Shown: positions 4,612-23,181 of the stretch, in pieces
Numbering within the stretch: position 1 is the first letter of the stretch
Layout: each line of letters begins with the position of its first letter
Source: a virus
Strand: one strand, 5' to 3'
Virus record (IMG/VR): IMGVR_UViG_3300027859_000890
Coordinates: 70,167 to 134,166 of that record
Length of the DNA stretch: 64,000 bases
The notes under the pieces: generated by a model
The model's input: the letters and a program-made list of their open reading frames with translations, nothing else
What the model was told of the DNA's origin: nothing
Database searches by the model: none
Position numbers and translations under genes: made by a program

Positions 4612-4617
4612 ATAAGG

Positions 4618-5041: not shown

Positions 5042-5050
5042 ATAGGTTGT

Positions 5051-5141: not shown

Positions 5142-5146
5142 TATGT

Positions 5147-5221: not shown

Positions 5222-5225
5222 CAAT

Positions 5226-5310
5226 GCAGGTGCGATACAGTTGGAGAGGTATGCTGGTCTCCAAAACCAGTGCGTAAGCTGAGCGAGTTCGAATCTCGCC
5301 ACCTGTGCCA
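5226..5310 (+). tRNA. tRNA-Trp(CCA) with atypical long variable region
   Basis: GCAGGTG/CACCTGT acceptor, CTGGT-CTCCAAA-ACCAG anticodon arm, 12-nt variable region, TTCGAAT, G73, CCA. Confidence 0.85.
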
Positions 5311-5313
5311 AAT

Positions 5314-5386
5314 GCGGAATTTCTCCTGGGAGAGGACTCAGCCTTCCAAGCTGATGGAATCGGTTCGAATCCGGTATTCCGCTCCA
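5314..5386 (+). tRNA. tRNA-Gly(TCC)
   Basis: GCGGAAT/ATTCCGC acceptor, TCAGC-CTTCCAA-GCTGA anticodon arm, U73, CCA; short atypical D-loop. Confidence 0.9.
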
Positions 5387-5390
5387 TTAA

Positions 5391-5467
5391 GTGGGTGTGT
5401 CCGGAATTGGTTACGGACCGGATTGCAAATCCGTGTTATGCTGGTTCGAGTCCAGTCACCCACTCCA
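5391..5467 (+). tRNA. tRNA-Cys(GCA)
   Basis: GTGGGTG/CACCCAC acceptor, CGGA-TTGCAAA-TCCG anticodon arm, U73, CCA. Confidence 0.92.
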
Positions 5468-5476
5468 GCACTGATG

Positions 5477-5484
5477 TATAAATA
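5477..5484 (+). promoter_or_regulatory. T4-like late promoter
   Basis: TATAAATA, with 5 nt before ATG 5490. Confidence 0.6.
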
Positions 5485-5489
5485 TCTTT

Positions 5490-5717
5490 ATGTATACAGT
5501 AGAGTTTGAACACGATGAGGTTTGCATAACTGTTATGGACGACACCGGTACCCACGGTGATATTAAAGTGCGGGCATACGAAGACGCAGTCTATATAACC
5601 CAAGATGATGAAGAACTAGATGTGGAGTTTATTTTAGAAATGAATCCACAAATGTGGGATGAACTTATTTCTGCTATACATTCGCCTGAGGGCTGTTTCA
5701 GAATAAAGAGAAAGTAA
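5490..5717 (+). CDS. hypothetical acidic protein
   Basis: ORF directly after TATAAATA. Confidence 0.65.
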   Translation: MYTVEFEHDEVCITVMDDTGTHGDIKVRAYEDAVYITQDDEELDVEFILEMNPQMWDELISAIHSPEGCFRIKRK

Positions 5718-5875
5718 TGTTCAAAGCCGTTAAAGAAACTATTTGGCATCTAACTTGTGGTAAATGTAAAAACTGGTTCACCTATGCAACTATGGAAAGA
5801 ATGTGTATTGATAGATATACTTTTCATTGTCCGCATTGTGGACACAAGGGTGGTTGTGAAATAGAAAAAGATTGA
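5717..5875 (+). CDS. small zinc-ribbon protein (52 aa, not in ORF track)
   Basis: MFKAVKETIWHLTCGKCKNWF...FHCPHCGHKG; two CxxC motifs; TAATG coupling. Confidence 0.7.
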   Translation: MFKAVKETIWHLTCGKCKNWFTYATMERMCIDRYTFHCPHCGHKGGCEIEKD

Positions 5876-5917
5876 CATAATAAGTTCTTTATGTTATATT
5901 TTTTAATGCGATAAATA
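5872..5917 (+). promoter_or_regulatory. tandem sigma70-type and late-type promoters
   Basis: TTGACA(5872), 17-nt spacer, TATATT(5895); GATAAATA(5910-5917); AGGAG SD. Confidence 0.55.
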
Positions 5918-5934
5918 CTCTATAATAGGAGAAA

Positions 5935-6681
5935 ATGATGGGCGGCAGAGTATTTGATGGTACTAGTGATTTTGATCACAATGCTATAGAAGAACTTTTG
6001 GATCTAGTCAATAATAAGATTCTCAAAGGCACAGGAATTGAATGTATTCCTGTGGGCAGTGCCGCAACACCTACACCAGGTAAACGTTCTGGTGATTTAG
6101 ATGTTATTGTTGATGCTAATGCTGTGATAAGCTATTTTAAAAGCACAAATGTAAAAGAAGCAAAACAAGCATTGAGTGATTATATTACCCAAAGAGGTTT
6201 CAATACAAAAGTTATAGGTACAAATGTACACGTACAAATGCCACTTGGCGGCGAAAGTCATCAATTAGATATAATGGTGGTTGATGATGCAGCCGTTGTA
6301 AGTAAATTCCATAAACACGATATTCCACAAGGTTCTAAGTATAAAGGTATACACAAGCAACTTGCTATCGCAAAACTTGCAAAAGCCAAAGGTATGTTGT
6401 GGAGTGCTTGGAAAGGTTTATTTTACCGCACAGAACAAAATAAAGCAGGCGAATTTATTTCTAACGATCTAAATGATATTGCAAAAGCATTGTTAGGAGA
6501 TGCTGCCAATGCTAACGATCTTGGTAGTTTAGAAACAATAATGGCAAAGTTGCCACCACAAGAAGCAGATGCATTAATGGCAGAACTAGAACAAGATCGT
6601 AACTGGAAAACAGAATCATTAGAGTTGAATAGAATTAAACAACTAGCAGGATTAAGTTTGAACAGTGTGAGAATGCTATGA
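5935..6681 (+). CDS. Pol-beta-superfamily nucleotidyltransferase
   Basis: GS.........SGDLDV motif, third Asp in QLDIM; C-terminal ELNRIKQLAGL motif. Confidence 0.7.
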   Translation: MMGGRVFDGTSDFDHNAIEELLDLVNNKILKGTGIECIPVGSAATPTPGKRSGDLDVIVDANAVISYFKSTNVKEAKQALSDYITQRGFNTKVIGTNVHVQMPLGGESHQLDIMVVDDAAVVSKFHKHDIPQGSKYKGIHKQLAIAKLAKAKGMLWSAWKGLFYRTEQNKAGEFISNDLNDIAKALLGDAANANDLGSLETIMAKLPPQEADALMAELEQDRNWKTESLELNRIKQLAGLSLNSVRML

Positions 6682-7802
6682 GATATGCAGAGCTAATTGA
6701 AGCCAAACAACTTGGTAGAGCATTTAACCATTTAGAAGATCTAGTATTTTTCTATGGCAGTGCTGGAACAATTGAAGCTCTAGAACATTTGAAAGACTTT
6801 GCAACACAAGAAGGCAGCAACAGCATTCGTATGAAGTGGGATGGCAATCCGCAGATATATTGGGGTAGAGCAGAAAAAGGCGGTCCGCTTGTATTGGCAG
6901 GACATAATGCTTGGAGCAAAGGTGCTGCCGCTACAAGTGCAGAAGAAGTTGCAGACTTTATTATAAACAAATCAGGTAATCCTAAAACATCAGAAGAAGT
7001 TGCTGCTCGTAGAGAATTTGGCAATAAATTTGCAAGTTTATATGACGACTTTGATAAAGCAACACCAAGTGACTTTGTAGGTTATGTATATGCAGATGGT
7101 TTATTTTTGGATCAACCTACACAAGAGAATGGTGTATATACTTTTTGTCCAAATCCAAAAAGTGAAACTTGCTATCACGTCAAAGCAGACAGCGATTTAG
7201 GAAGACAGATTTCACAAGCAAATATAATGGTTGTTGGACACGCTTATTTTCCAGAGTTTGGTGCAGCAGATGCAACACAGGAACCTATGCAAGATTTTAG
7301 TGCGTTTAATGCCAATCCAAATGTTATTGTTTTAGGACCAGTTTACAATACAAAGCCAGTAAAAGTAAACACATCAGCAATAGATAAAGTAGAATCGTTT
7401 GTCAAAACACACGGACCTAAAATAGATGAATTTTTGGCTAGTGTACCTGGCCTAAGTGATCTAAAAAATATAATTTACACATATGTAAATCAAACAGCAA
7501 AAGCAAAACAATTAGACAGCCTAAGTGAACAGCATTTCTTCCAATGGTTAGAAAGCAGTAAAGTAAGCGCACCAAAACAGGCCAAAATAGGCGAACTAAA
7601 CCAACGTACAAAAGCAATAGGTGCTATATTCGAACTTGTGAAAATGATACAACGTATGAAAGATCAAATTATTGATCAAGTAGAAGGCGAACAAGGAGAC
7701 ATTTGGGACACTAATGGAGAAGGAAGAGTACGTTACGGGGGAATGGATAAACAATTTGGTAATGTTAAATTAGTACCAAGGAAAAGGTGGACACCGTCTT
7801 GA
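6678..7802 (+). CDS. ATP-dependent ligase/RNA-ligase-like nucleotidyltransferase (phage 'HLED' family)
   Basis: HLED, KWDG (motif I KxDG), EGRV (motif IV-like), VKLV (motif V-like). Confidence 0.65.
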   Translation: MRYAELIEAKQLGRAFNHLEDLVFFYGSAGTIEALEHLKDFATQEGSNSIRMKWDGNPQIYWGRAEKGGPLVLAGHNAWSKGAAATSAEEVADFIINKSGNPKTSEEVAARREFGNKFASLYDDFDKATPSDFVGYVYADGLFLDQPTQENGVYTFCPNPKSETCYHVKADSDLGRQISQANIMVVGHAYFPEFGAADATQEPMQDFSAFNANPNVIVLGPVYNTKPVKVNTSAIDKVESFVKTHGPKIDEFLASVPGLSDLKNIIYTYVNQTAKAKQLDSLSEQHFFQWLESSKVSAPKQAKIGELNQRTKAIGAIFELVKMIQRMKDQIIDQVEGEQGDIWDTNGEGRVRYGGMDKQFGNVKLVPRKRWTPS

Positions 7803-8326
7803 GATATAGAGAAATTATAAAAGAAGCAAGCTATAATAATTGGGACCATAAGGAAGCAGTTGATTACAGCAAATTTTTGGAACAAACATTTGGTGCTCCT
7901 GATGAAATGACTGACGAACAAACAGTTTGGCATAACATTGATGGATTCAAACGTGTAGTATGTAGAGATGAATATATCTTACACGGATCACCAGCACCGC
8001 ATTATGATTTTGTATACAGCTATGTTGATATGGAAGTGCCAGAAAGTTTATCAGACGAACTAGCAAAGTGCTCAGGTAGTATACTTATTGACCATTTGAA
8101 GAATGAAGTAGGCGCACGTTGTGGTAGCCTTACAGCAAATGCAACAACACTTAATTTTGTTATGGATGTAGTAGCAGGCAGAGCAGAACCAGAAAAAGAA
8201 GAATACGAAAAGCGTATACTTGGTATGAAAGACAAGTTTGAGCGTGGTATGAAATATACATTAGATTGGTGGCCTGATGAAGCAGGAGATGCGGATCCTG
8301 AAAATCCGTATTATGCTGAGGAATAA
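7799..8326 (+). CDS. hypothetical protein (likely TTG start, MRYREIIKEA)
   Basis: AGGTGG SD, TTGA overlap with upstream stop; in frame with track ORF 7787. Confidence 0.65.
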   Translation: MRYREIIKEASYNNWDHKEAVDYSKFLEQTFGAPDEMTDEQTVWHNIDGFKRVVCRDEYILHGSPAPHYDFVYSYVDMEVPESLSDELAKCSGSILIDHLKNEVGARCGSLTANATTLNFVMDVVAGRAEPEKEEYEKRILGMKDKFERGMKYTLDWWPDEAGDADPENPYYAEE

Positions 8327-8328
8327 CA

Positions 8329-9087
8329 ATGCAATTGCTTGAGTTGACAAATAAGTTTCAGCACTTGGATCCTAATATGTCTAGAGGATTGTACAGTCGC
8401 GGAGACAAAGAGGCAACTAAAGAACTACAAACGTGGTTGAATGATAACGGATATGATTCAGGCAAAGTAGATGGCATTTATGGTCCAGAAACCACTCAAG
8501 CAGTAAGAAACTTTCAAAGCGATGCTGGACTAAAAGTAGACGGCGATGCTGGTAGAGAAACTATTACTATGATAGTAAAAATTGATACAGGCGTTGAACC
8601 ATTACCAACAAAAATTCAAAGAGGTGTTGACCCTGATATCAAAAAACGTGCTAAAATAAGTGCGTGGAAAGCAACAGATGTTGTAAATTTACTTGGACAC
8701 TATGCACAAAAATATAGATTAAACAAAGATTTTGTTATGTCAATTGCACAAAAAGAAAGTAATATGGATCCTATGGCAATAGGTGATAAGAATCTTGAAC
8801 ATAAAGCATATGGCATAATGCAAGTACGTAAGCCAGCAATGGATGAAGTAAATAGTATATACGGTACTGACTATACTGAAGATGACTTAATGGAGTTTAA
8901 TCCACAAGCAATAGCAGAAGTTGGTGTTGGATATCTTGCAGCCGCAAGAGACAAATATGGAGCAAAAACATTTTTTGATGTAGCAGCCACTTACAATGGA
9001 GGTCCAGCAGGTCCTCGTAACCAGCGAGCTAGAAATTATGCGACGGATGTTTTACAAATAATGCAGGAAAGGTCTAGAAGCAGATGA
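8329..9087 (+). CDS. peptidoglycan-binding domain plus lytic transglycosylase (SLT)
   Basis: LQ.WL...GY..G.VDGIYGPET..AV..FQ..GL.VDG; KES, GIMQV and ATYNGG SLT motifs. Confidence 0.85.
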   Translation: MQLLELTNKFQHLDPNMSRGLYSRGDKEATKELQTWLNDNGYDSGKVDGIYGPETTQAVRNFQSDAGLKVDGDAGRETITMIVKIDTGVEPLPTKIQRGVDPDIKKRAKISAWKATDVVNLLGHYAQKYRLNKDFVMSIAQKESNMDPMAIGDKNLEHKAYGIMQVRKPAMDEVNSIYGTDYTEDDLMEFNPQAIAEVGVGYLAAARDKYGAKTFFDVAATYNGGPAGPRNQRARNYATDVLQIMQERSRSR

Positions 9088-9302
9088 ATATAACAGATAT
9101 GGTAGTATTAGTAATTAGTATGTGGGGACAAACAGAATTAGGCGAATGGGTATACATTGGCAATCAATATGTAAACCAAGAACCAATGACACTTGCTGAA
9201 TGCAGTGAATTAATTAGTCCTGACAAATGGGCAAAGTATCAAGAAAATCAGTTTTACAAAATTGAATTGGCTTGCTATTATGCAGGAGAACCTAAAGAAT
9301 GA
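9084..9302 (+). CDS. hypothetical protein
   Basis: Coupled ORF (ATGA). Confidence 0.6.
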   Translation: MNITDMVVLVISMWGQTELGEWVYIGNQYVNQEPMTLAECSELISPDKWAKYQENQFYKIELACYYAGEPKE

Positions 9303-9889
9303 AACTAAGAGAACTTTTCGAAGCGCCAGGCGAAACAGTAGGTCTTATATTTGGAAGATTTAATCCGCCACATAAAGGTCACAAGGCAGCTTGGGAAATG
9401 GCAGCAAAAGAAACACATTGGTATGTAGGTACTAATGCAGGAACAGTTGGTCCTAAAGATCCGCTGCCATCACAAGTAAAAGTTCTTGCAATGGAAACAA
9501 TTATGCCTGAAGTATCAGAACACATTGTTTTCAGTCAAAGTTGGCTCACACTTGCAAGTGAGTTATATTCAAAGCATCCTAATGCAACTCTTGTTCTATT
9601 TACAGACGAAGCTTGGGTGCCAAAAACAATTGCACAATACAATGGTCAAGAAGGTCCACACGGAACCTACAATTTCAAAGATATAGAAACAAAACCTACA
9701 CCAAGATTAAGCAGTGCAACAGCATTGCGTAAAGCAGTATTAGACAATAGTCCAGAGGAGTTTGCTGATGCTGCTGGTGTTCCTGCTGATACTATTATTG
9801 ATGTACCAGGTGAAAACATAACATTCTTTGATATGGTTGCAAAGTACTTAGAACCACATAGAGAAAAACTACTTGCAAAAAAGAAGTAG
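9299..9889 (+). CDS. HIGH-motif cytidylyl/adenylyltransferase-like protein
   Basis: FGRFNPPHKGH, KDPL, SSATALRK. Confidence 0.8.
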   Translation: MKLRELFEAPGETVGLIFGRFNPPHKGHKAAWEMAAKETHWYVGTNAGTVGPKDPLPSQVKVLAMETIMPEVSEHIVFSQSWLTLASELYSKHPNATLVLFTDEAWVPKTIAQYNGQEGPHGTYNFKDIETKPTPRLSSATALRKAVLDNSPEEFADAAGVPADTIIDVPGENITFFDMVAKYLEPHREKLLAKKK

Positions 9890-9901
9890 TTGTTATATAA
9901 T
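9873..9901 (+). promoter_or_regulatory. sigma70-type promoter giving a leaderless mRNA
   Basis: TTGCAA(9873-9878), 17-nt spacer, TATAAT(9896-9901); ATG at 9907 with no SD. Confidence 0.6.
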
Positions 9902-9906
9902 ACATT

Positions 9907-11067
9907 ATGACTCACGGCTTTTTTCTAGCAAACATCAAATCTTACCCCTTCGGACAAACAGCATTAGGCACTGAATTTATAGATCAAGGATTCAGTTTAG
10001 AAAATATGTTTGGGCATTTTGATGACTTTACATTTAGAAACTTTTATAATTTAAACAGAATAGATAAAATTAAGTGCGATACAAATTTTATTATGCTGTC
10101 TGTAAATATGCCTGTGACATATAAAATAAAATTAAGTTTTGACACAATACAAAAAATAAACAATGACACTAACACTTTCTTAGTTATGATAAGCATACTT
10201 GAAGGTGAAATGGATTATGCTAAAATACTAAAAGAACTTTCTAAACAGCGTATTAACAAAGAAAAAGTTATCATAGTAACAAGTTGTTATTCGCATTTAG
10301 AAAACCAGTTTGGCTTAAAATTTGTTTATATAGATTATTGGGAAAGTTTTACAAGATATCATCAACGTTTTTTACCTAATGCAACAGACAGACGTGCAAT
10401 TAATTTAGATGCACAAAAAAAGTTTTTGTGTTTGAATAGAAATCAAAAAGCACACAGGATTTGGTTTTATTTTAATTTATATAGAATGAAAATGCACAAG
10501 CAAAGTCATTCAAGTTATCATTTACCTATACTAGATATACAAGAATACAATAGGATGGCCAGAAGTAGTTTTGTAATGAAATATATTCCCAGCAGTTTAC
10601 ATCCAGAATATCAACATTTTTTGAATCATACATACGAAGGCGCAGTCTTAGATAAATTAAGTTCTGATCCTATTAATTATAATTCAACAATATATGATTA
10701 TTACAACGATAGTCTGTTTAGTGTTGTTACTGAAAGTAGTTTTAGACATACTTTTCTCACAGAAAAAACATTCAAAGCAATTGTACACTGCCATCCATTT
10801 TATGTAATAGGCAACAAACAACATCATTGGCTACTAAGAGAAAACGGTTATCATACATTTGAGGATTTCTTTGGCATAGAAGCAGTAGAAAACTTTGATC
10901 AAGCAAGTGCGTTGTTAAGTAACATTAAATACACTGATATTAGTGAATATAGAAATAAATTAAATAAGGAAACAGTAGATAAATTATATAGTAACTATGA
11001 CAACTTTTACAATAGACTCATTAGCTGGTTGGACATAGAAAAAAGATTGTTAAGAGCCACGAGGTAA
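9907..11067 (+). CDS. putative glycosyltransferase-like protein (GT-B/GT10-like C-terminus)
   Basis: FLCLNR...HR; VVTES...FLTEKTFK.I...PF; GYHTF. Confidence 0.55.
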   Translation: MTHGFFLANIKSYPFGQTALGTEFIDQGFSLENMFGHFDDFTFRNFYNLNRIDKIKCDTNFIMLSVNMPVTYKIKLSFDTIQKINNDTNTFLVMISILEGEMDYAKILKELSKQRINKEKVIIVTSCYSHLENQFGLKFVYIDYWESFTRYHQRFLPNATDRRAINLDAQKKFLCLNRNQKAHRIWFYFNLYRMKMHKQSHSSYHLPILDIQEYNRMARSSFVMKYIPSSLHPEYQHFLNHTYEGAVLDKLSSDPINYNSTIYDYYNDSLFSVVTESSFRHTFLTEKTFKAIVHCHPFYVIGNKQHHWLLRENGYHTFEDFFGIEAVENFDQASALLSNIKYTDISEYRNKLNKETVDKLYSNYDNFYNRLISWLDIEKRLLRATR

Positions 11068-12276
11068 ATGTCAGAGTTTAAAGAAAACTTTTGTATGGCG
11101 CCTTGGACACATATGAGCGTTTGGCAAACAGGAGATGCGTATCCGTGTTGTATATATCATTGGGATATGCCTGTTGATAATATCAATCGCAGTGGACTAA
11201 AAGGTGCGTGGAACAGTAAAAAAATGCGTGAACTTCGTTTACGTATGCTTTCCAATGAGCCAAGCGAAGGTTGTGCTAAATGCACAAACTATGACAAGCA
11301 AGGTATTATTAGTTATAGACATAAGTTCAACACTGAGTATGATCATCACTACAATTTAGTCAAAACAACACAGGAAGATGGCACAGTAGATCAAATGAAT
11401 TTGGCCTACTTTGATATTAGATTTAGCAACTTGTGCAATATGAAATGTAGAAGTTGTGGACCGCATTTCAGTAGTAAATGGTCTGAAGATTTAATAGGCA
11501 AGCCAGAAATAGTACAAATTAACCACCAAGATATGTGGGAAGAAATAGAAGATGTTTTACCTAGCATCGAAGAAGTATACTTTACAGGCGGCGAAAGTTT
11601 GTTTATGCCACAGCATTATAGATTGCTAGATATGCTTATAGAGCGTGGACTCAAACCGAGACTGACATATAACAGCAACGCCACACGCCTAAGTCTTAAA
11701 GGCAAACACATAAAAGATTATTGGCAGCACTTTGATAATATTTTTTATTGTGTAAGTTTAGACCAAGTAGAACGCAAAGCAGAATACACAAGAGCAGGAC
11801 AAACTTGGGATACAGTGTTTACAAACTTGTGTTGGATACGTGATAATTTTGAACACAGTTATGATAAAGGTGTGGTTATACAACCAAACCCAACTATCAG
11901 TGCGTTGAATGTTGTTGACTTGCGTCATATTGTAAATTATCTGTTTGAACACAACATTCCTACTGACTATGATATTAATTTAAGTAATTTGTTGGTTGGT
12001 CCAGAATGGATGAGTTGTACAATATTGCCAGAACAAATTAAAGCAAAAGCAAAAGAAAATATTGAATTACTCAAGCAAGATATTGATAAAAGAAAAATGT
12101 ATCCTCAAAGAAGAGAATTTTTGCATAATGGACTCGACAACATTGTAAACTTTATGTATAATAGTGATGATACACATTTGATACCTGAATTTAGAGTACA
12201 GATGCAAAAAATGGATATGAAGCGTGGCGAAAACTTTTTAAAGGTTTTTCCTGAACTAAAGGATTTGTATGTCTAG
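11068..12276 (+). CDS. radical SAM protein with N-terminal SPASM/twitch-like Cys domain
   Basis: FCMAPW...PCC...C..C; CNMKCRSC; FTGGE. Confidence 0.88.
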   Translation: MSEFKENFCMAPWTHMSVWQTGDAYPCCIYHWDMPVDNINRSGLKGAWNSKKMRELRLRMLSNEPSEGCAKCTNYDKQGIISYRHKFNTEYDHHYNLVKTTQEDGTVDQMNLAYFDIRFSNLCNMKCRSCGPHFSSKWSEDLIGKPEIVQINHQDMWEEIEDVLPSIEEVYFTGGESLFMPQHYRLLDMLIERGLKPRLTYNSNATRLSLKGKHIKDYWQHFDNIFYCVSLDQVERKAEYTRAGQTWDTVFTNLCWIRDNFEHSYDKGVVIQPNPTISALNVVDLRHIVNYLFEHNIPTDYDINLSNLLVGPEWMSCTILPEQIKAKAKENIELLKQDIDKRKMYPQRREFLHNGLDNIVNFMYNSDDTHLIPEFRVQMQKMDMKRGENFLKVFPELKDLYV

Positions 12277-13477
12277 TGTAAAGGAAAACAAACATTTTTG
12301 TATGATGCCTTGGGTACATATGCATCTGTGGCCTGCTGGCTTTACATATCCTTGCTGTATGAGTGATCCAGATTATCCTATAGGCAACACACAAACACAA
12401 ACTTTACAAGACGTTTGGAACGGCGATAAAATGCGTAAAATACGTTTGAATATGTTGTCAGGACAACCAAGTCAAGAATGTAGACGTTGTTATGAACTAG
12501 AAGAAAACGGTATGCAAACATTGCGTAACAGCAGTATCAATAACTTTTCAGAAAAACACTGGCAGAAAGTTATGAACACAGCTGAAGATGGCAGTGCTGG
12601 TGATGTAAATATGGCATATATGGATATACGTTTCAGTAATTTATGTAATTTGAAATGTCGTAGTTGTGGCCCACAGTTCAGCAGTAGCTGGTTTGAAGAT
12701 CACAAACAAATGTATGGAGAACTTAATCATCCTAAAATATTACAAGTGCGTAAAGATATGACTAGTTTTATGGACGAACTTGATCCGTTATTAGAAAGTG
12801 TTGAACGTGTTTATTGGGCAGGTGGCGAGCCACTAATTACAAAAGAGCATTATCATATACTTGATAAATGGATTGATATGGGCAAGACAGATGTCAATAT
12901 GGATTACACAACAAACTTTACACAAATGTATTACAAAAAGAAAACAGCATTTGAATATTGGAATAAGTTTGAACACGTAAGAGTAGCAGGTAGTTTAGAT
13001 GCTAACCACGCACGTGGAGAATATTTACGTAAGAATATGATTTGGGATATAGTTGTACAAAACAGACGCACTATGCTAGAGCAGTGTCCACACGTATACT
13101 TTGAGATAACCCCCACAGTAAGCGTTTATAACGTGTTAAACCTACCAGATTTCCACAAAGAATGGATTGAAGAAGGACTATTAGAACCAGGTAACATAAG
13201 AATCAATATATTGCTTGATCCAACTTATATGAGATTAAGTATATTACCAGAGGAAAAGAAAGATAGAATTAGGAAACGTTACGCAGAACATTTAGATTAT
13301 TTGAAACAATTTAAGAATATAAATCACGTAAAGAATGATTATGAAAGTATTTTAAATTTTATCAATGACGATAGGACTCAAGAAGTTAAAATGTTTTTGT
13401 TTAAAACATTCAAAGTAGACAAACTTAGACAAGAAAATGTGTTTAAGATATTTCCTGAATTAGAAGGTATCGCATAA
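12269..13477 (+). CDS. radical SAM protein with N-terminal SPASM/twitch-like Cys domain
   Basis: FCMMPW...PCC...CRRC; CNLKCRSC; AGGEP. Confidence 0.88.
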   Translation: MSSVKENKHFCMMPWVHMHLWPAGFTYPCCMSDPDYPIGNTQTQTLQDVWNGDKMRKIRLNMLSGQPSQECRRCYELEENGMQTLRNSSINNFSEKHWQKVMNTAEDGSAGDVNMAYMDIRFSNLCNLKCRSCGPQFSSSWFEDHKQMYGELNHPKILQVRKDMTSFMDELDPLLESVERVYWAGGEPLITKEHYHILDKWIDMGKTDVNMDYTTNFTQMYYKKKTAFEYWNKFEHVRVAGSLDANHARGEYLRKNMIWDIVVQNRRTMLEQCPHVYFEITPTVSVYNVLNLPDFHKEWIEEGLLEPGNIRINILLDPTYMRLSILPEEKKDRIRKRYAEHLDYLKQFKNINHVKNDYESILNFINDDRTQEVKMFLFKTFKVDKLRQENVFKIFPELEGIA

Positions 13478-15633
13478 TGGGATTTTTTGAGTACAAAGAT
13501 CCGGATAGAGAAAAGCCAGACAAACCTACGTTTAGCGAAGATAAACACGTTGCGACAATGCAGGTTATACAGCAATACAGCAGACCTGTGCAAAAAGGCT
13601 TGCAAGAGCTTACCATTGAGTATGATGTAAATAGAAAAACAAAAGTATGTTTGTGTTTACTTCCAGAATGGGATCCTAGTTTTCCTCCTTACAATGTAGC
13701 AAAGTTAGCAAGTGCAATAAAACGTGCTGGCTATGCTTGTAAAAGTTTTGATATAAACGTCGATAGTTACAGCAGATTTTTAAATGAGAAATGGAATATT
13801 CCATTTGATCCTTGGAATCCACTACGTGACTGGCATTGGTACAAGGATGAATACTACAAAGATATACATCATCATTTGAAACCTATATTGCTTGAATACA
13901 TTGATGAAATGGAAAAATTTCAACCAGATGTTGTAGGCTTTAGTTTATACTATTGTAATGAAGAACCTTGTAAGTGGATGGCAACAGAAATAAAAAAACG
14001 TATGCCAAATGTAAAAATAATAGTAGGAGGTCCTGCTACACACGCAAGTTATTACAAAGGCGAAGAAATATATGATTATGTTGTTAACGGTGAAGGCGAA
14101 CAACCATTACTACTAATGCTTGCCAGTATTGAAGCAAAAAAGACTATCGAATACAATGAAGATGCTGTAAGTAAAATTGTTAGACAACCTGAGAATCAGC
14201 GTTACAATCTAAGCACACTGCCATTGCCTGATTACAGTGACTTTGACTTCAGCAAGTATAAATTTCCTAATGGTGCTTTGTGTGAAATATCAAGAGGTTG
14301 CATTGCTAAATGTACTTTTTGTGAAGAGACACATTTTTGGAAATACAGACAAAGAAATGCATTTAGCACGTTGAATGAAATTGAACATATGTACTATGAA
14401 CACGGAACAAATGTGTTTTGGTTTATTGATAGTCTTGTAAATGGTAATCTCAATGAGCTACGTGGCTTTGTTAAAGGTGTAGCAGAAAAAGGTTTGGACA
14501 TACATTGGACAGGCTATGCACGTTGTGATGGACGTATGGATGCTGAATATTTTAGAGATTTGAAAGCAGGTGGTTGCGAAGTTCTTAATTATGGTATTGA
14601 ATCAGGCAGTCAAGTTGTGTTAGACGCAATGGATAAAAAAGTAAAAGTAGAAGAAATGGAAGCAAACTTCCGTGATGGCTTTGCTGCTGGTGTTGATGCT
14701 ATGACTAATTGGATTGTAGGTTTTCCAAACGAAGGTCCAAAAGAACTAGAAGAAACACTTACATTTTTATGGCGTATACGTAACCAAGGATTGATAGCAG
14801 TTAGTCAAGGCACAGGCTTCAGCGTTGGTGTTGATACTATTGTAGGACAAAACTTTGAAAAGTTTGAGCTAATGCCTTTTTATTATTACGACCACTGGAT
14901 AAGAAAAGATCTTACAGCAAGCATTGTACATAAACTAATTAAAATGAAAAGTTTTAGTATTTTTACAGACTTCTTACAAACAGATAAAATTTGTAGTTTG
15001 CCTACAAGACACAGTTTACGTGAAAAACATTATAAGATTGAATTCAATGATCCAAATAGATTGAATACTCTTGAGTATGATTTTGAAGAATTCAATTATA
15101 ATATTATTACGCCAGGACTAGGCAACTTTGCAGATAGTCTTGTAAATGAGATATGGCCTTTCTTACGTATACTTTGGAGAACAAAAGGTGGATACAAACT
15201 TTGTTTGAAGTTCCGCAAAGAATGGGAATACGAAGAATGGGGAAACAGAAATGCTGCTCCGTTGGATGCACAATATGATTTTGAAATAGATGATGAAGGA
15301 AATTGGACTGCTGACTTTTGGTGGGATTATCAACAAGATCCATATGATACTTGGGATGACAAATATTGGATTGAAGATGGCAGAGAAAAAATGAGTGTAG
15401 ATCCGTGGAGCCCTGTGTGGGCAATTATGGACTTTACTAGGGATAATGGAAACGCAGTAATACGTGCTAGAAAACTTGCGTGGAAAGGTGACCCAGACAA
15501 AAAAGGCAAAGACCCTTACAATGCTTTTGACAACGATGTATTTAGACAGCACCAAAAAGAGTTTTTTAGATTTAGGGATACTGATTTGAGTTTCAAGTAT
15601 GCTTGGCAAGGCAAAGGACATTGGAATGTCTGA
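13477..15633 (+). CDS. cobalamin-dependent radical SAM protein
   Basis: PPYN, PDVVGFS, VGGP, GEGE, SRGCIAKCTFC, GIESGS, VGFPNE; long Trp/Asp-rich C-terminus. Confidence 0.9.
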   Translation: MGFFEYKDPDREKPDKPTFSEDKHVATMQVIQQYSRPVQKGLQELTIEYDVNRKTKVCLCLLPEWDPSFPPYNVAKLASAIKRAGYACKSFDINVDSYSRFLNEKWNIPFDPWNPLRDWHWYKDEYYKDIHHHLKPILLEYIDEMEKFQPDVVGFSLYYCNEEPCKWMATEIKKRMPNVKIIVGGPATHASYYKGEEIYDYVVNGEGEQPLLLMLASIEAKKTIEYNEDAVSKIVRQPENQRYNLSTLPLPDYSDFDFSKYKFPNGALCEISRGCIAKCTFCEETHFWKYRQRNAFSTLNEIEHMYYEHGTNVFWFIDSLVNGNLNELRGFVKGVAEKGLDIHWTGYARCDGRMDAEYFRDLKAGGCEVLNYGIESGSQVVLDAMDKKVKVEEMEANFRDGFAAGVDAMTNWIVGFPNEGPKELEETLTFLWRIRNQGLIAVSQGTGFSVGVDTIVGQNFEKFELMPFYYYDHWIRKDLTASIVHKLIKMKSFSIFTDFLQTDKICSLPTRHSLREKHYKIEFNDPNRLNTLEYDFEEFNYNIITPGLGNFADSLVNEIWPFLRILWRTKGGYKLCLKFRKEWEYEEWGNRNAAPLDAQYDFEIDDEGNWTADFWWDYQQDPYDTWDDKYWIEDGREKMSVDPWSPVWAIMDFTRDNGNAVIRARKLAWKGDPDKKGKDPYNAFDNDVFRQHQKEFFRFRDTDLSFKYAWQGKGHWNV

Positions 15634-16834
15634 TACTTATTGCGTATATCCATTCATAAATGTGCATACAAACACTGACGGCAGATGTAAATTATGTTGT
15701 CACGTTTATGGCGAAGATTATATAAAAGTAGATGGCAAAGATGCTGTGCTTGGCAAAACAAATTGGAACAATATTTGGAACAGCAAGTATATGCTAGATG
15801 TACGTGCAAACTTACTTTCAGGAAAGAAAGTAAAAGAGTGCAATAGATGTTACGAGCACGAAGAGAAAGGTTTACAAAGCAGTAGGCAATGGGCAAATGA
15901 AAATTATAAACAACCATTATTGCATAGCAACCCTACTCACCTGGAACTTCGGCTCGGCAACAAATGTAATTTAAAGTGCAACAGTTGCTGGAGTGTAAGT
16001 AGTAGTCAAATATACAAAGAACGTAAAAAAATATTAGCAAACGAAACTGTGCCGAAATGGTTAGATGATCAATGGCAACACGAAATAAAAAGTGTAGAAT
16101 CTTTTGATTGGCAGTGGTATGAAACACAAGAGTTTCGTGACTTTGTAGACCAAGTTGCACCAACATTAGAACGTTTGTATATGACAGGTGGTGAGCCAAC
16201 TATGATTGATGCTAATCAGTATGTGCTTGACAAACTTGTAGAAGCAGGTAATACAAAATGTCACGTTGCTTGGACAACAAATATGACAACGTGGCCTGAA
16301 GGATTTTATGACAAACTAGATTTTTTTGACAGCAGCGAAGTGCAGATGAGCATAGATGGTTATGGCGATCACAATATGTACATACGCTATCCAACTGATT
16401 GGAAAAAAGTAGAAGAAAATTTTACAAAAGCAATGACATTGCCTGAAAAAGTACAACTAAAAATTTACTTTGTATATCAAGCGTGGAATGTATTTGATGT
16501 AGATAGGCTAATACGTTGGCTAGAAGAACGACAAACAAGACGTGTAGACTTTGTGCCTATATTCTTAGAACATCCAGATCAACTACACAGTTGCGTATGG
16601 CCAAGAGAAATACAGCACAAAATTATAGGTAAATTATTTACATTGCAAACAACAATGCATAGAGATCCTGTTCAAAGAATCATAAACTACACACAAAACA
16701 CTAATAAATATTCTGCTGAGAATATAAACAGGATGAAACAATTCATTTCAATCAACGACAGATATAGGAAATACAAGTTTGCAGATGTGTTTCCGTTACT
16801 AAATTATATATTGGAAGATGTATGCGAGACATAA
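15626..16834 (+). CDS. radical SAM protein with N-terminal SPASM/twitch-like domain
   Basis: YCVYPF...LCC...CNRC; CNLKCNSC; TGGEP; start refined to ATG 15626. Confidence 0.88.
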   Translation: MSDTYCVYPFINVHTNTDGRCKLCCHVYGEDYIKVDGKDAVLGKTNWNNIWNSKYMLDVRANLLSGKKVKECNRCYEHEEKGLQSSRQWANENYKQPLLHSNPTHLELRLGNKCNLKCNSCWSVSSSQIYKERKKILANETVPKWLDDQWQHEIKSVESFDWQWYETQEFRDFVDQVAPTLERLYMTGGEPTMIDANQYVLDKLVEAGNTKCHVAWTTNMTTWPEGFYDKLDFFDSSEVQMSIDGYGDHNMYIRYPTDWKKVEENFTKAMTLPEKVQLKIYFVYQAWNVFDVDRLIRWLEERQTRRVDFVPIFLEHPDQLHSCVWPREIQHKIIGKLFTLQTTMHRDPVQRIINYTQNTNKYSAENINRMKQFISINDRYRKYKFADVFPLLNYILEDVCET

Positions 16835-17814
16835 AGGCTATAATACCTGCAAAAGATAAATGGGTCAGTTTGGTATGGCAAGTCAACGACTGGTGTAACT
16901 TCCGTTGTACGTATTGTAGTGAATGGAATTGGGCTGGACGTAACAAAAACGAAGATGACATTGATCTGATTGTTACAACATTAGAACGCATTATGCTACA
17001 CTACAAAGACAAAGGATACAAATATTTTAAACTTTATCTCAGTGGTGGTGAGCCTACTTTTTGGAAAGCAATTATTCCTGTTGTAGAAAAGTTTAGAGAA
17101 ATAGCAGAATGGCCTGGTAGTTGTGTAGGTATAAACACAAACTTCAGTAGGCCTATATCTTGGTGGGAAAAGCATCATCATTTGTTTGAAGATGTAGTTG
17201 CAAGTTATCACGCAGAATGGACAAAAGAAGAAAAGTATTTACAAACTTATAAGTTTTTACAAGACAAGAAAAATTATCTTTGCAGTAGAATTATGATGCA
17301 TCACAAATACTTTCAGCAGTGTGTGGATTTTGGAGATAAAATTAAAGACACTTGCGATAATTATATGATTGAATATGCGCCAGTGTATGATGAACTACGT
17401 CCTAGCACTGATCCATATTTTTATGAAGAACAGTGGCAAATGGATTTCTTCAAAACACGCAGTAGTGCAAGACAGCAAGTTATACCAATACACAAAGAAC
17501 CAAACTATGCTTGGGCAAAAGTAATGCACACAGATGATACTGTTACAGATATTGATACAAATGCAATCATTACAGAAGGTAAAAACTTTTTTAAAGGTTG
17601 GACTTGTAACATACACGAAAGTTTACACATACATCCTAACGGTAGGATACAACAAGCAAGTTGCGGTGTTGGACCAATAGTTGGAAATATTGTACAAGGT
17701 AAGTTTGATATAAAATTAAACGAAGCAATTGTTTGTCCTAAAACACATTGTCACTGTGCAGCCGATTTCAACATAAGTAAAGCGAGGCCTGAAAATGTCA
17801 ACCTCATCGCCTGA
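16822..17814 (+). CDS. radical SAM protein with C-terminal Cys cluster
   Basis: CNFRCTYC, SGGEPT, C-terminal C...C...CPKTHCHC. Confidence 0.88.
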   Translation: MRDIKAIIPAKDKWVSLVWQVNDWCNFRCTYCSEWNWAGRNKNEDDIDLIVTTLERIMLHYKDKGYKYFKLYLSGGEPTFWKAIIPVVEKFREIAEWPGSCVGINTNFSRPISWWEKHHHLFEDVVASYHAEWTKEEKYLQTYKFLQDKKNYLCSRIMMHHKYFQQCVDFGDKIKDTCDNYMIEYAPVYDELRPSTDPYFYEEQWQMDFFKTRSSARQQVIPIHKEPNYAWAKVMHTDDTVTDIDTNAIITEGKNFFKGWTCNIHESLHIHPNGRIQQASCGVGPIVGNIVQGKFDIKLNEAIVCPKTHCHCAADFNISKARPENVNLIA

Positions 17815-19120
17815 TACATTTTGCTACCACGCTATGCAAAGTTTTAGCACTCATCCTCACGGACGTAGCAGGCCTTGTTGTTTTAGTAGACAGGAAACAA
17901 GAAAGTTTATGCCTGGTATAAACTTCCAAGATACTCCAGAATACAATGATAAAGTAAATGCAGCTCAAAACATCAGCGAATTTATCAATGATCCTGAGAT
18001 AATGAAAATTAGAGAAGGCTTGTTGAAAGGAGAACAACCAAAAGGTTGTGCTGAATGTTTCAAGTTAGAAAAAGATGGTATACGTAGTTTTAGGCAAACT
18101 TCAAATGAAATATATGAAGAACATATAGATAAAAGTCTAAAGAACGTAAGTGAAGATGGCTTTTTAGATCCAAAAGCAATTACATACTTGGACATTAGTT
18201 TAGGCAATGTTTGTAATTTAAAATGTAGAAGTTGTAATCCTTGGGCTAGTCATAGATGGATTGAAGAAGGTCCTACTGTGCCACACACAGATTGGGATGA
18301 CACAGCATACAAAATTGGTAAACTAAGCAGTACAGATCCTTGGTTTATCAAAGCGTTTGCAGAAGACTTTTTTGATGACGTTTTACCAAATGTAAAAATA
18401 ATAAATTTTATTGGTGGCGAACCTTTGGTTGTCAATGAACACTATACTTGGTTAGAACACATAATAGAAATGGGCTGGAGCCAAAACATTGAGTTACACT
18501 ACAACACAAATGGCACAACTATACCAGATAGGTTGCTAGATATTTGGGATAAGTTTAGAGGTGTAGTTCTAAGTTTAAGTATTGATGCTACAGAAGATTT
18601 AGCATACTATGTTAGATATCCAAGCAAGTGGAAAATAATAAAACGCAATATAGAAAAATTAAAACAATTCAGTAAAACTCGCACAGGAGTAATTGTTCAT
18701 ACGCACGTAACTCTAAGTGTAATGAACTTGCACGACTTGCCTAATGTTTTGAATTGGTGTAAAGAAAACTATGATACTTGGCACTACACTTGGGATTGGG
18801 GTAATCACGGATATCAAAATTGCTTACCGCATTTCAATATTGTAGAATATCCACGCAACCAACACATAAGAAACTTGCCAGAAGAGCGTAAAAAACTTAT
18901 GAACAATATGTTAGAACAGCAACACGCAAAGTTTCAAAATGCTGGCTTGCCAGATTGGGAACAGTGGGCAGTAGATGCAATACTAGGATTGAAAAATCAA
19001 TTAAACGAACAACCCAACGAAGGTGATTGGCAAAAGTACATTAATAATACTAGAGCAAGTGATAGGTTTAGAAAAGTAAACATCATAGATTATATTCCTT
19101 GGATGGAGGAATATATGTAA
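17795..19120 (+). CDS. radical SAM protein with N-terminal SPASM/twitch-like domain
   Basis: FC...RPCC...CAEC; CNLKCRSC; IGGEP; YNTNG. Confidence 0.88.
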   Translation: MSTSSPDTFCYHAMQSFSTHPHGRSRPCCFSRQETRKFMPGINFQDTPEYNDKVNAAQNISEFINDPEIMKIREGLLKGEQPKGCAECFKLEKDGIRSFRQTSNEIYEEHIDKSLKNVSEDGFLDPKAITYLDISLGNVCNLKCRSCNPWASHRWIEEGPTVPHTDWDDTAYKIGKLSSTDPWFIKAFAEDFFDDVLPNVKIINFIGGEPLVVNEHYTWLEHIIEMGWSQNIELHYNTNGTTIPDRLLDIWDKFRGVVLSLSIDATEDLAYYVRYPSKWKIIKRNIEKLKQFSKTRTGVIVHTHVTLSVMNLHDLPNVLNWCKENYDTWHYTWDWGNHGYQNCLPHFNIVEYPRNQHIRNLPEERKKLMNNMLEQQHAKFQNAGLPDWEQWAVDAILGLKNQLNEQPNEGDWQKYINNTRASDRFRKVNIIDYIPWMEEYM

Positions 19121-20701: not shown

Positions 20702-21872
20702 AAGTGTAGTGAAACGCAAAAAACCCAGAGCAAAACGTAATCTAAATGATTGGGATGTTATACGTGAAGACTGGGGTTGGCAAAAAGCAGGCTATTATAT
20801 CCATTACGAAATTGATAGTAAGCAATGGCTTGTTAAGATAAAAGAGTTTATAAAAAAGAGATATGATAAAAAAGTTGTAACTTCAATCAACAAACTCCCT
20901 GATTGGAAAATTGGTGGTAAAAGTCATTGGGCAACAGCGGCACACTTTGAAGAACATTGGCCAGATAAAATACACGAAGGTTATGTAGGCAAACTAAATG
21001 AATGGATTCTAAAACTTGCAGAAGAAGGTGCAAAAGTAGTAGAAGAAAAGAAGAAAGAAGAAAAAGCAAAAAAGAATGTATATGTTCCTAGCATACAAGA
21101 ACGTATTCGTGATCAAGCATTTCTTGCCTGTGAAGCCATAGAAGAATGGATGGATGGTTTTATTACAGATAATAAAACGTTTGATCCTAAAGGATTTGAT
21201 TTTGTAAAACACTTCGCAAAATATAAAGTTACTCAAGCACACGCAAGAAAAATTAAAGGTTTGTATCAAGGTGAATTAGAAGAAGCATATCTAATACAAG
21301 ATTTGCCAACACCAGGACAAATTAAAAAATGCAAGAATGAACGTGAAGCAGATCAATTACAGCAATTACGCGAAGGCTACAGTCATCTAACAAAAAAGGA
21401 TGCAAAAGCATACTTGACTGCATTAGAGCTACTACACGGCGCTTGTGACGTTGTTATAGACGCCGCTAAAGCAAATCGTAAGCCACGTGCTAAGAAAGCA
21501 CCAAGTAAAGAAAAACTAGTTGCTAAGTTGAAGTATATGTTGCGTGATGACAAACTACAACTTGTCAGTGTAAATCCATTAGATATTTTGGATAGCAAAG
21601 AAGTTTGGGTATACAATGTTAAGACACGTAAACTTGGAAAGTATATTGCAGAAGATCACGCAACTTTGCAAGTTAAAGGTACAACACTATTGCATTTCAA
21701 CGAATTGCAAAGTAAACAAAAAACATTGCGTAAACCTGCAGAAACACTTAAAGAATTTAAGAATGCCGGCAAAGTGCAACTAAGAAAATTTATGGATGAT
21801 ATTAAAACCACTGATATCAAATTAAATGGCAGATTAAATAGTGATACTATTATTCTCAAATGTGTAAAATAA
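20694..21872 (+). CDS. large-phage hypothetical protein
   Basis: Basic protein with C-terminal VKGTTL..F...S.QKTLRKP...NGRLN motif recalled from T4-like phages. Confidence 0.7.
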   Translation: MAKSVVKRKKPRAKRNLNDWDVIREDWGWQKAGYYIHYEIDSKQWLVKIKEFIKKRYDKKVVTSINKLPDWKIGGKSHWATAAHFEEHWPDKIHEGYVGKLNEWILKLAEEGAKVVEEKKKEEKAKKNVYVPSIQERIRDQAFLACEAIEEWMDGFITDNKTFDPKGFDFVKHFAKYKVTQAHARKIKGLYQGELEEAYLIQDLPTPGQIKKCKNEREADQLQQLREGYSHLTKKDAKAYLTALELLHGACDVVIDAAKANRKPRAKKAPSKEKLVAKLKYMLRDDKLQLVSVNPLDILDSKEVWVYNVKTRKLGKYIAEDHATLQVKGTTLLHFNELQSKQKTLRKPAETLKEFKNAGKVQLRKFMDDIKTTDIKLNGRLNSDTIILKCVK

Positions 21873-21875
21873 ATA
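21869..21875 (+). promoter_or_regulatory. late-type promoter
   Basis: ATAAATA overlapping the upstream stop codon. Confidence 0.55.
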
Positions 21876-21883
21876 TATTGCTA

Positions 21884-21923
21884 AGGAGTTCGCCACGAGC
21901 CTCCTATATCAAAAGGCAGGGGA
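21884..21923 (+). ncRNA. preQ1-I riboswitch-like aptamer
   Basis: P1 AGGAG/CTCCT; 12-nt loop TTCGCCACGAGC; tail ATATCAAAA; GGC pairs with loop GCC; abuts SD AGGGGA. Confidence 0.6.
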
Positions 21924-21932
21924 TACATAAAT

Positions 21933-22238
21933 TTGACATTAGAAAAACTTAAAAAACAACTATTGTGGTGGAATAAAGCGGCAGTGGTGGCACCAATCTT
22001 TGTTACTACATTTTTGGTGTTACTGTGGTATGCTTCTATATGTCCGCCCGACCAATTATTTTTAACAGCCTGTGGGCTGTATTTCGCTACCGCAGTAATC
22101 TGGTGGTGGTGGACAATGCGAGGTATAGCATACCTTGTAGCATTGATGCAGAAGATACAGGAAGATATGCTCGAAGCATCAAAAGACCTAAAAAGTATTC
22201 GTAATGAGATACAGGTTGACAACCAATCTACTAAGTAG
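21933..22238 (+). CDS. small two-TM membrane protein with C-terminal coiled coil
   Basis: Two hydrophobic segments; TTG start 9 nt after AGGGGA. Confidence 0.65.
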   Translation: MTLEKLKKQLLWWNKAAVVAPIFVTTFLVLLWYASICPPDQLFLTACGLYFATAVIWWWWTMRGIAYLVALMQKIQEDMLEASKDLKSIRNEIQVDNQSTK

Positions 22239-22244
22239 TATTAT
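22216..22244 (+). promoter_or_regulatory. sigma70-type promoter for queD
   Basis: TTGACA(22216-22221), 17-nt spacer, TATTAT(22239-22244); predicted start near 22251. Confidence 0.7.
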
Positions 22245-22251
22245 TAAACTA

Positions 22252-22310
22252 AGAGGACTATGTGTTCGACCCTCTATAAATATTCCGCACACTCCGTATT
22301 GACAAGGAGT
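22252..22310 (+). ncRNA. preQ1-like pseudoknot leader with anti-SD hairpin
   Basis: P1 AGAGG/CCTCT followed by ATAAA; loop TGTGT pairs with GCACA; ACTCC pairs with SD GGAGT; lies directly before queD. Confidence 0.5.
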
Positions 22311-22315
22311 ATAAT

Positions 22316-22759
22316 ATGAGTTATTACAGTACAAAAACATATGGGCACAACATTGGATTGAGTGCCTGCTTTAGACAACCTAATGCACATTCACATTGCA
22401 AATTTTTACACGGATATAGTTTGCAATTTAAATTTACGTTTTCAGCAATTAATCTTGATGAGCGTAATTGGGTAGTTGACTTTGGTGGCTTGAAGCCGTT
22501 GAAAGCGTGGCTTGAAGAAAAGTTTGATCACAAAGTTATACTAGACGTTGAAGATCCTTTTATGGAGCATTTTGATAATCTTGCGGCAGCAGGACTATGT
22601 GAACTTACAAAGTTTGATGGTGTAGGCGTTGAACGTTTTGCATATCACGCTTGGGTGTTTGCAAATAAACTTGTTGACGAAATGACTGACGGACGTTGTA
22701 AATGCGTTGAAGTAGAATGTGCTGAACACGGTGCAAATTCGGCGATATACAAAGTATGA
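22316..22759 (+). CDS. queD: 6-pyruvoyl-tetrahydropterin/6-carboxytetrahydropterin synthase
   Basis: SHC..LHGYS, WVVDFGGLK, FDHK, E..A, VECAEH..NSA. Confidence 0.88.
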   Translation: MSYYSTKTYGHNIGLSACFRQPNAHSHCKFLHGYSLQFKFTFSAINLDERNWVVDFGGLKPLKAWLEEKFDHKVILDVEDPFMEHFDNLAAAGLCELTKFDGVGVERFAYHAWVFANKLVDEMTDGRCKCVEVECAEHGANSAIYKV

Positions 22760-23181
22760 AGATATTAATATTTGGCCTACCAGGAAGCGGCAAAACAACA
22801 TTGGCAAAATCATTTGCTGAGTTGATAGGTGGAGTACATTTAAACGCTGACGCAGTACGAACCAAATATAATGATTGGGACTTTAGTAAAGCAGGGCGTG
22901 TAAAGCAAGCACAACGTATGCGTCTTTTAGCAGATGGTGTAGTTATGGCAGGCAAAACTGCCATAGCAGACTTTGTATGTCCTACTTACATAACTAGATT
23001 AGAGTTTAATCCTGACTTTACAGTTTGGATGGATACTGTTGATGGTTGTGAATATAATGACACTAATATTTTATTTGAACCACCTGAAAAAGTAGATTAT
23101 CACGTAGGTGAATGGTTCAGTAACACACACGAAGCATTAGAACCTGTCATCAAAAGATGGATGGAAAGAAATGGTGTTTGA
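22756..23181 (+). CDS. adenylylsulfate-kinase-like P-loop kinase
   Basis: GLPGSGKTT, NADAVR, DWDFS..GR, DFVCP, FEPP. Confidence 0.75.
   Translation: MKILIFGLPGSGKTTLAKSFAELIGGVHLNADAVRTKYNDWDFSKAGRVKQAQRMRLLADGVVMAGKTAIADFVCPTYITRLEFNPDFTVWMDTVDGCEYNDTNILFEPPEKVDYHVGEWFSNTHEALEPVIKRWMERNGV

Follow-up and report, generated by a model that had tools for sequence, protein, structure and literature searches.

The review PMC11625349 describes the alpha-site of class I riboswitches for pre-queuosine 1 (preQ1-I) as a specificity C before the 3′ strand of the first paired element (P1), a U at position 6, the last adenine of the third loop (L3) and a floor formed by the G5–C18 pair, and gives the base preceding the specificity C as U in type I and A in types II and III. 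Here we describe an RNA element of related architecture at positions 21884–21918 of a 64,000-nucleotide (nt) stretch of viral DNA, hereafter the window, which covers positions 70,167–134,166 of the 134-kb record IMGVR_UViG_3300027859_000890 (CheckV completeness 37%). The element lies in the leader of a gene for a protein of 101 amino acids (aa) and is one copy of a motif that recurs in SAR116 bacteria and in marine phages. We consider it probable that these leaders form preQ1-I-like pseudoknots that control translation in both. A sequence-only reading of the window had proposed a preQ1-I riboswitch at this site, acting on translation one gene upstream of queD, and its description of the leader (box, AGGAG, loop, CTCCT, tail and TTG start) is accurate at the coordinates below.

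21869..21875, + strand: ATAAATA box resembling a late promoter (promoter role putative)
21884..21888, + strand: 5′ strand of P1, AGGAG, motif positions 1–5, with G5 as the helix-closing base
21889..21900, + strand: 12-nt loop UUCGCCACGAGC, made up of L1 (U6 U7 C8), the predicted 5′ strand of P2 (G9 C10 C11) and L2 (A12 C13 G14 A15 G16 C17)
21901..21905, + strand: 3′ strand of P1, CUCCU
21906..21914, + strand: L3 linker AUAUCAAAA, a variable N4 followed by the conserved C-AAAA
21915..21918, + strand: predicted 3′ strand of P2, GGC (21915–21917), and A35 facing C8
21919..21923, + strand: Shine–Dalgarno-like GGGGA, 9 nt upstream of the start codon (putative ribosome site)
21933..22238, + strand: TTG-started gene for the 101-aa protein (hydrophobic segments: two; tail at the C-terminus charged)

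A conserved leader motif in SAR116 bacteria and marine phages

The motif is about 40 nt long and consists of a 5-base-pair P1, a loop of the form UUCGCCAC-N(1–2)-AGC and a tail of the form N4-CAAAA-GGC that ends at or beside the ribosome site. Eighty distinct copies were collected from about 60 uncultured marine phage contigs, with one copy each, and from SAR116 (Puniceispirillaceae) genomes, with one to four each. The exact 20-mer GGAGTTCGCCACGAGCCTCC was found in 8 other viral contigs, ahead of genes that are far more diverged. With a looser sequence pattern, 62 of the 64 loci obtained from viral contigs were real, and further pattern searches added 6 viral contigs, four of which have a different P1 sequence (AGCAG/CUGCU, in two contigs, CCCAG/CUGGG and CGCGG/CCGCG). 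When prokaryotes were scanned with a single genome for each species, 44 loci were obtained, of which 36 were real, nearly all in genomes labelled as SAR116, Puniceispirillaceae or other marine Alphaproteobacteria. At gathering thresholds Rfam 15 reported only four tRNAs in the window and nothing at the leader, and no description of the motif was found in literature searches, which a rare variant in specialised preQ1 alignments or supplements could escape. The motif is new relative to Rfam 15 and the literature searched.

A covariance model, R1, was built from 28 distinct sequences, the window copy among them. On the 134-kb record the window copy reached 60.9 bits under R1 and no other site scored above 12.7 bits, a comparison that is partly circular as the window copy had trained the model. 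No second copy was detected by R1 over this record, and a repeat or mobile element inside the phage was rejected on this ground. Exactly one copy was found in each of 32 other viral records, and two to four in each of five bacterial genomes. At E ≤ 1e-3, R1 matched 31 of 96 genomes of one GTDB family, with 58 hits and one to four per genome. When 151 genomes sampled from the order were searched, 25 were matched, 24 of them already known from the family search. The sole newcomer, L390, carries a variant with an odd loop at 1501–1541. Similar leaders occur at L001 2950–3000 (on the same contig as L032) and at L062 1440–1500. These three keep a GGAG/CUCC hairpin, the A-rich tail and GGC, their loops of 7–10 nt (CAAAAGC, ACAUCAGC and CCUGGUUUAA) are unrelated, and the R1 match is weak or absent; decay of the motif could account for them, or they could represent a second variant of simpler build.

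The position of the motif relative to the gene behind it is fixed. The start codon lies 7–8 nt past GGC in 24 of the 33 SAR116 loci with a called open reading frame (ORF), and in the SAR116 copies AGGGAG or AGGAG follows GGC immediately. In the window a single A separates GGC from GGGGA, and the earlier statement that the element ends next to the ribosome site holds. A 53.2-bit copy at L327 (795–837, − strand) is followed by a paralogue-like sequence that has no start codon at the usual place, and this copy may be dead.

The P1 helix is proven by compensatory changes. In a MAFFT alignment of the 28 sequences, P1 was 99.3% paired, with both-side changes in four of its five pairs, and none of 500 shuffles reached the observed covariation score. 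The 80 distinct sequences, drawn from 94 hits, were aligned to the model and hence lean toward it. Within them 98.8% of P1 cells are paired, both-side changes again affect four of the five pairs, and the covariation score is 0.240 versus 0.070 for shuffles (0 of 500 reaching it) and at most 0.077 for slid controls. Swaps between GC and CG are seen in 17 and in 19 sequences; at the outer pair there are 50 CG, 17 UG, 6 AU and 2 UA, with 5 copies unpaired; CCUGG/CCAGG stems are additional variants. The U–G pairs of P1 are compatible with this strand only. The G5–C18 pair is present in all 80 copies, as are U6, C17 and AAAA, with U7 in 78 and a C ahead of AAAA in 71. The leader is a conserved, strand-specific RNA of preQ1-I architecture, which supports the sequence-only reading.

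For comparison with preQ1-I, two RNAs found by Rfam RF00522 were used, L388 1506–1546 (53.1 bits) and L389 1506–1547 (32.9 bits); L388 exceeds the RF00522 gathering threshold of 39 bits and serves as a positive control. When these two were aligned with three copies of the motif, one each from the window, a phage and SAR116, G5, U6, U7, C8, G9, A12, C13, A15, C17, C18 and the adenine run were invariant. The 12-nt loop, U6/U7/C8, C17 and G5–C18 had been singled out beforehand, and this alignment and the column counts bear out that choice. All four of the alpha-site residues given in PMC11625349 are retained in the motif, where they may bind a ligand in a similar manner.

The putative second helix, P2, can form in all 80 sequences, G9–C34 and C11–G32 being present in every copy and C10–G33 in 78, with a U–G wobble in the remaining 2. 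A fourth pair between positions 8 and 35 is mostly C–A, with G–C in 3 and C–G in 2, and G8 occurs together with C35 at four related loci (L380, L365, L366 and L368). An alternative P2, in which GGC would pair with G16–C17–C18, is broken in 4 of the 80 copies, whereas the pairing with G9–C11 holds throughout. An anti-Shine–Dalgarno switch, in which the CCUCC strand of P1 would pair with the ribosome site, was rejected as a general mechanism, the 3′ strand of P1 often being CUGGG, CUGCU, CCGCG or CCAGG. The minimum-free-energy fold of the leader is no better than that of shuffled sequences (z = 0.26), a result that a pseudoknot would be expected to give.

Genes behind the motif and the queD-like neighbour

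All first ORFs behind the motif encode small, uncharacterised proteins that are mostly membrane-anchored. In SAR116 they include proteins of 43–81 aa with a conserved N-terminus, a basic stretch and a single C-terminal transmembrane (TM) segment, as well as a soluble family of 52–72 aa and others. A 48-aa 'DLFRNTLATNGLS...TM' family is among the small proteins behind the motif. The phage first ORFs comprise the two-TM (2-TM) family of the window, a coiled-coil family, coiled-coil proteins with a C-terminal TM segment and TM proteins of 45–50 aa; one of these phage proteins gave weak XhlA/hemolysin-like hits (Pfam, E 0.043; PHROGs, E 0.0033). Searches of these proteins against Pfam, PHROGs, ESM Atlas and 5.8 billion proteins yielded no family above the curated cut-off, only weak sub-threshold hits and 'hypothetical' names. 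At the phage loci L084–L147, heuristic ORF calls give 23 distinct groups of motif-led ORFs, 13 of which begin with TTG and 2 with GTG; leaderless relatives of the window's gene use ATG. In the neighbourhoods of 14 bacterial loci, the one weak exception to the lack of queuosine-pathway genes is a pterin-4a-carbinolamine dehydratase gene (PF01329) at L336, where it follows the motif at a distance of about 280 nt; two of the 14 loci adjoin integrases.

The 101-aa protein itself matched no Pfam family, gave one short hit in PHROGs (phrog_29055, a family of unknown function; E 0.0016) and fell only in 'hypothetical' viral clusters of ESM Atlas. Its homologues were found at 20 viral and 47 metagenome loci. 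The sequence-only reading had recognised this gene from its TTG start and two hydrophobic segments, and the start at 21933 is backed by relatives with ATG at the same codon. Among 19 readable viral loci, 17 start with ATG 5–8 nt past a TAAATA box and have no leader; in the viral relative L001 the leader is a hairpin whose loop has 7 nt. Among the 47 metagenome loci the window's element is present only in L029 and L031, with short-loop variants in L032 and L062 and other short leaders in L030 and L068. Neither 4 kb of the window (blastn) nor the 101-aa protein (tblastn) matched the phage GenBank collection. Against the same collection the upstream 392-aa protein gave distant matches, of at most 39.5% identity, in large phages of Pseudomonas, Stenotrophomonas, Sinorhizobium and Caulobacter.

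The TAA stop codon (21870–21872) of the 392-aa gene falls inside the ATAAATA box of the leader. ATAAATA occurs at 15 sites in the window, all 15 on the + strand, and those checked lie 12–40 nt upstream of ORF starts; the box of the motif leader lies 64 nt upstream of its start because the leader carries the extra length of the motif. Shuffled sequences predict 33 occurrences, and ATAAATA is avoided in the window except at putative signal sites.

The next gene downstream had been read as queD, and its placement in the PTPS/QueD family holds:

22316..22759, + strand: PTPS/QueD-family gene (PF01242, E 1.6e-16)

A separate TATAAATA box (ATAAATA at 22276) and an AAGGAG ribosome site precede this gene. 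Nearly all of more than 60 relatives share one gene order wherever the contig reaches, namely the 392-aa gene, the 2-TM gene, the PTPS gene and a glycosyltransferase-like gene, and only three members of this syntenic group (the window, L029 and L031) carry the motif. Since the 2-TM–PTPS synteny is found with or without the motif, the queD-like neighbour does not explain it. The link to queD put forward in the sequence-only reading is therefore weak: the motif elsewhere precedes small uncharacterised genes, and the PTPS gene is best regarded as a neighbour, its membership in a motif-regulated unit being unsupported. The ORFs of 100 aa or more in the 134-kb record include no QueC, FolE or TGT/DpdA, which in a record 37% complete does not prove their absence.

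In the SAR116 host family, TGT was found in 81 of 96 genomes at about 500 bits, full-length QueC in none of the 96 (the best match, 25.5 bits, covers profile positions 2–63, in ORFs of other sizes) and YhhQ in 2. With TGT present and QueC lacking, the hosts appear to depend on imported queuosine precursors. By gene content the family looks like a queuosine-precursor salvager that uses an undescribed importer, which makes a sensor for such a compound plausible and does not show one. In one SAR116 genome (G001:C6:237398-238461) the TGT gene was reported as two pieces with a TGA between them.

Other parts of the record are also unusual. Seven radical-SAM genes lie in a row at 3148–19120 of the window, an unusual density for a phage; in Pfam two of them show a SPASM domain at the N-terminus and one a domain that binds B12. 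Two DUF6071-like or uncharacterised genes follow. Four clustered tRNA genes, one of them long-armed (88 nt), lie at 5051–5464. The record also abounds in host-like genes (G000:C1:1-70000, L384–L387; window 433–61119), which encode COX1, COX2 and CtaG; the curli proteins CsgF, CsgG and a curlin repeat; heme oxygenase and a bilin reductase; GAPDH; IMPDH/GMP reductase; a CHASE2 adenylate/guanylate cyclase; ClpP, ClpS and a ClpB-like ATPase; DnaJ, peptide deformylase, Hsp20 and a plastocyanin-like protein; and RNR, ThyX, PhoH and UvdE.

Proposed mechanism and rival explanations

A compact H-type pseudoknot resembling preQ1-I is the fold that we consider most likely for the leader at 21884–21918. 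In it P1 has five pairs closed by G–C and G9 C10 C11 of the 12–13-nt loop would pair with the GGC that follows the A-rich tail. The fold would end at the ribosome site, which in the bacterial copies is AAGG about 9 nt before AUG, or one base ahead of it in the phage window. The folded state would block binding of the 30S subunit and lower translation of the small protein gene downstream. A guanine-like ligand, read by C17, U6, the last adenine of L3 and the G5–C18 floor, may stabilise this state, preQ1, preQ0 or a relative being the candidates; such a ligand would be the most economical explanation of the conserved pocket residues. That the motif is a real cis-regulatory pseudoknot seems to us very likely, and its descent from, or convergence on, preQ1-I is likely. 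A response to a ligand is rather to be expected, and that this ligand is a 7-deazaguanine seems somewhat less likely than not.

A number of observations weigh against this reading. Many of the apparently invariant bases were fixed by the patterns used to collect the copies, and only the model-based searches, themselves still biased, left them free to vary. In those searches of genomes C8, C10, A12, C13, G16 and C27 do vary, and G5, U6, G9, C11, A15, C17, C18, AAAA and GGC are unvaried in hits of at least 29 bits. The three core pairs of P2, whose bases were likewise fixed by the collection patterns, show no covariation. Conservation and covariation in related phages, on which the sequence-only reading had staked itself, were both observed, the covariation in P1; the GCC/GGC covariation that it had ascribed to P2 was not, since P2 hardly changes from copy to copy. 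At E ≤ 10 the 201 nt around the leader matched none of the Rfam 15 families, PreQ1 (RF00522) included, and neither did six variant loci. Over the 134-kb record RF00522 gave seven chance-level hits, the best of 13.4 bits and none at the leader; the PreQ1 model search suggested in the sequence-only reading thus failed to detect the element in the window, in the 201 nt, in the whole record and at the variant loci. Conversely, R1 scores the true preQ1-I RNA L388 at 4.7 bits, and by either sequence model the motif and preQ1-I appear as separate families. Position 16 is G in 76 of the 80 copies, A in 2 and C in 2, where types I–III, as given in PMC11625349, need U or A, which counts against the sequence-only reading. 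The odd-loop variants suggest that the loop may be dispensable for some function. QueC was found in none of the 50 further phage records with the motif that were searched, each of which is a fragment, and no queuosine-pathway family (QueC/D/E/F, FolE, TGT or YhhQ) among 35 neighbouring ORFs at the 14 bacterial loci. A metatranscriptome run that contained 0.11 of the sampled words yielded, over 21400–22800, only a contig of 183 nt within the PTPS gene and 63 nt from a relative, with nothing covering the leader; this run is uninformative on transcript start and expression.

The more serious of the rival explanations, although in our view an unlikely one, is a ligand-independent operator. The leader would be bound by a host protein or small RNA, or would act as a constitutive pseudoknot or thermosensor that throttles potentially membrane-damaging small proteins, as in type I toxin and holin leaders, and its likeness to preQ1-I would reflect fold or ancestry and not a ligand. 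The nature of the regulon is in keeping with this, consisting of small, mostly membrane-anchored proteins, one to four per genome in unrelated neighbourhoods with two beside integrases, and on the phage side of 2-TM proteins, coiled-coil proteins with a C-terminal TM segment and 45–50-aa TM proteins, including the weakly XhlA/hemolysin-like one. So are the frequent TTG starts of the phage ORF groups (13 of 23, by heuristic calls), the lack of an Rfam match and of queuosine gene context, and the odd-loop variants that retain just the hairpin, the A-rich tail and GGC. However, ten loop and stem residues, all four published preQ1 contacts among them, are identical to those of preQ1-I, which is hard to explain with a protein or small RNA as the reader. 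The motif is also present in hosts and in diverse phages, so that a trans-acting factor must be host-encoded, and no candidate gene for such a factor is linked to it among the 35 neighbouring ORFs of the 14 bacterial loci. The operator stays alive as an explanation because of G16, the foreign regulon and the odd-loop variants at L001/L032, L062 and L390.

An ordinary class I preQ1 riboswitch, by which the phage would sense a 7-deazaguanine made by its own que genes and control the 2-TM gene within a queD-linked unit, is improbable. It would account for the retained pocket residues and architecture, for the PTPS/QueD-family gene 78 nt downstream of the 2-TM ORF and for the pairing of these two genes in nearly all of the more than 60 relatives. 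However, it is at odds with the failure of the Rfam model and with G16, with the separate box and ribosome site of the PTPS gene, and with the restriction of the motif to three syntenic members when most relatives start with ATG 5–8 nt past the box. The lack of QueC, FolE and TGT/DpdA among the ORFs of the incomplete record, the lack of QueC in the fragmentary records of the other phages and the bacterial copies ahead of genes unrelated to queuosine speak against it as well. A chance hairpin, or a terminator of the upstream gene, has a negligible probability: the shortness of the stem and the unremarkable folding energy would suit it, but not the 80 distinct conserved copies with compensatory changes, always just ahead of a start codon, and a terminator stem would not lack a following U-run.

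If the preQ1-I-like pseudoknot reading is correct, the motif is an undescribed branch of one of the best-studied small riboswitch folds, with about 80 natural variants and a regulon unlike queuosine metabolism. An abundant marine clade, SAR116, and its large phages would then share a riboswitch-like aptamer, which would be a rarity; the motif gives these uncultured phages a host assignment and directs attention to small membrane proteins as its targets. Members of the host family seemingly need imported precursors and mostly lack YhhQ (found in 2 of 96 genomes), and a 40-nt RNA makes questions of sensing and uptake testable, as well as the question of whether phages time their late membrane proteins by a metabolite. 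More speculatively, and with slightly less confidence than we attach to a 7-deazaguanine ligand, the motif might be a type IV among class I preQ1-like riboswitches or might serve a new class of ligand on the same scaffold, it might define, in bacteria with TGT and without QueC or YhhQ, a SAR116-specific regulon of small membrane proteins tied to the uptake of, or response to, scavenged 7-deazaguanine, and jumbo-type phages of SAR116 might have captured it to gate a holin-like 2-TM protein by the 7-deazaguanine or purine status of the infected cell.

Comparison with preQ1-I types and variant riboswitches

The motif has much in common with type I preQ1-I RNAs, represented by L388 and L389. Both have a 5-base-pair P1 closed by G5–C18, UU after the 5′ strand of P1, a loop of 12–13 nt that starts with UUCG and contains A12 C13, A15 and C17, an A-rich tail with C-AAAA, and a placement directly ahead of the ribosome site. 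However, positions 10–11 are AA in type I and CC in the motif, position 16 is U in type I, where it serves a second ligand, and G in the motif, and the tail is CUA(A/G)G in type I and GGCA in the motif, with loss of the conserved tail C. Given CC at positions 10–11 and the GGCA tail, three G–C/C–G pairs could replace the second-ligand region of type I. The gene contexts also differ, the queuosine genes of type I having no counterpart behind the motif.

Type III, known from gamma-proteobacterial yhhQ leaders, offers a second comparison. In the Escherichia coli structure, as described in PMC10622847, four to five adenines precede the 3′ strand of P2 within an AAGG ribosome site, as they do the predicted strand in the motif, and a variable linker separates P1 from the A-run in both. 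The single pocket, translational control and salvage setting of type III can likewise be compared with those proposed for the motif, salvage being a plausible setting in a host family with TGT and without QueC. In contrast, type III has a shorter pyrimidine-rich loop, AC ahead of the 3′ strand of P1 and a GGA/UCC P2. Type III regulates yhhQ, and YhhQ, found in just the 2 of 96 host-family genomes, is never encoded behind the motif.

Variant, or 'snuggler', riboswitches built on a parent aptamer are mentioned in PMC11625349; guanine-class variants for xanthine, 2′-deoxyguanosine and 8-oxoguanine are examples. They resemble the motif in retaining the scaffold of the parent with changes at few conserved positions, and in a wholly different gene association. 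The motif differs from them in where its changes fall, which is in the ceiling of the pocket and at position 16, away from the specificity base.

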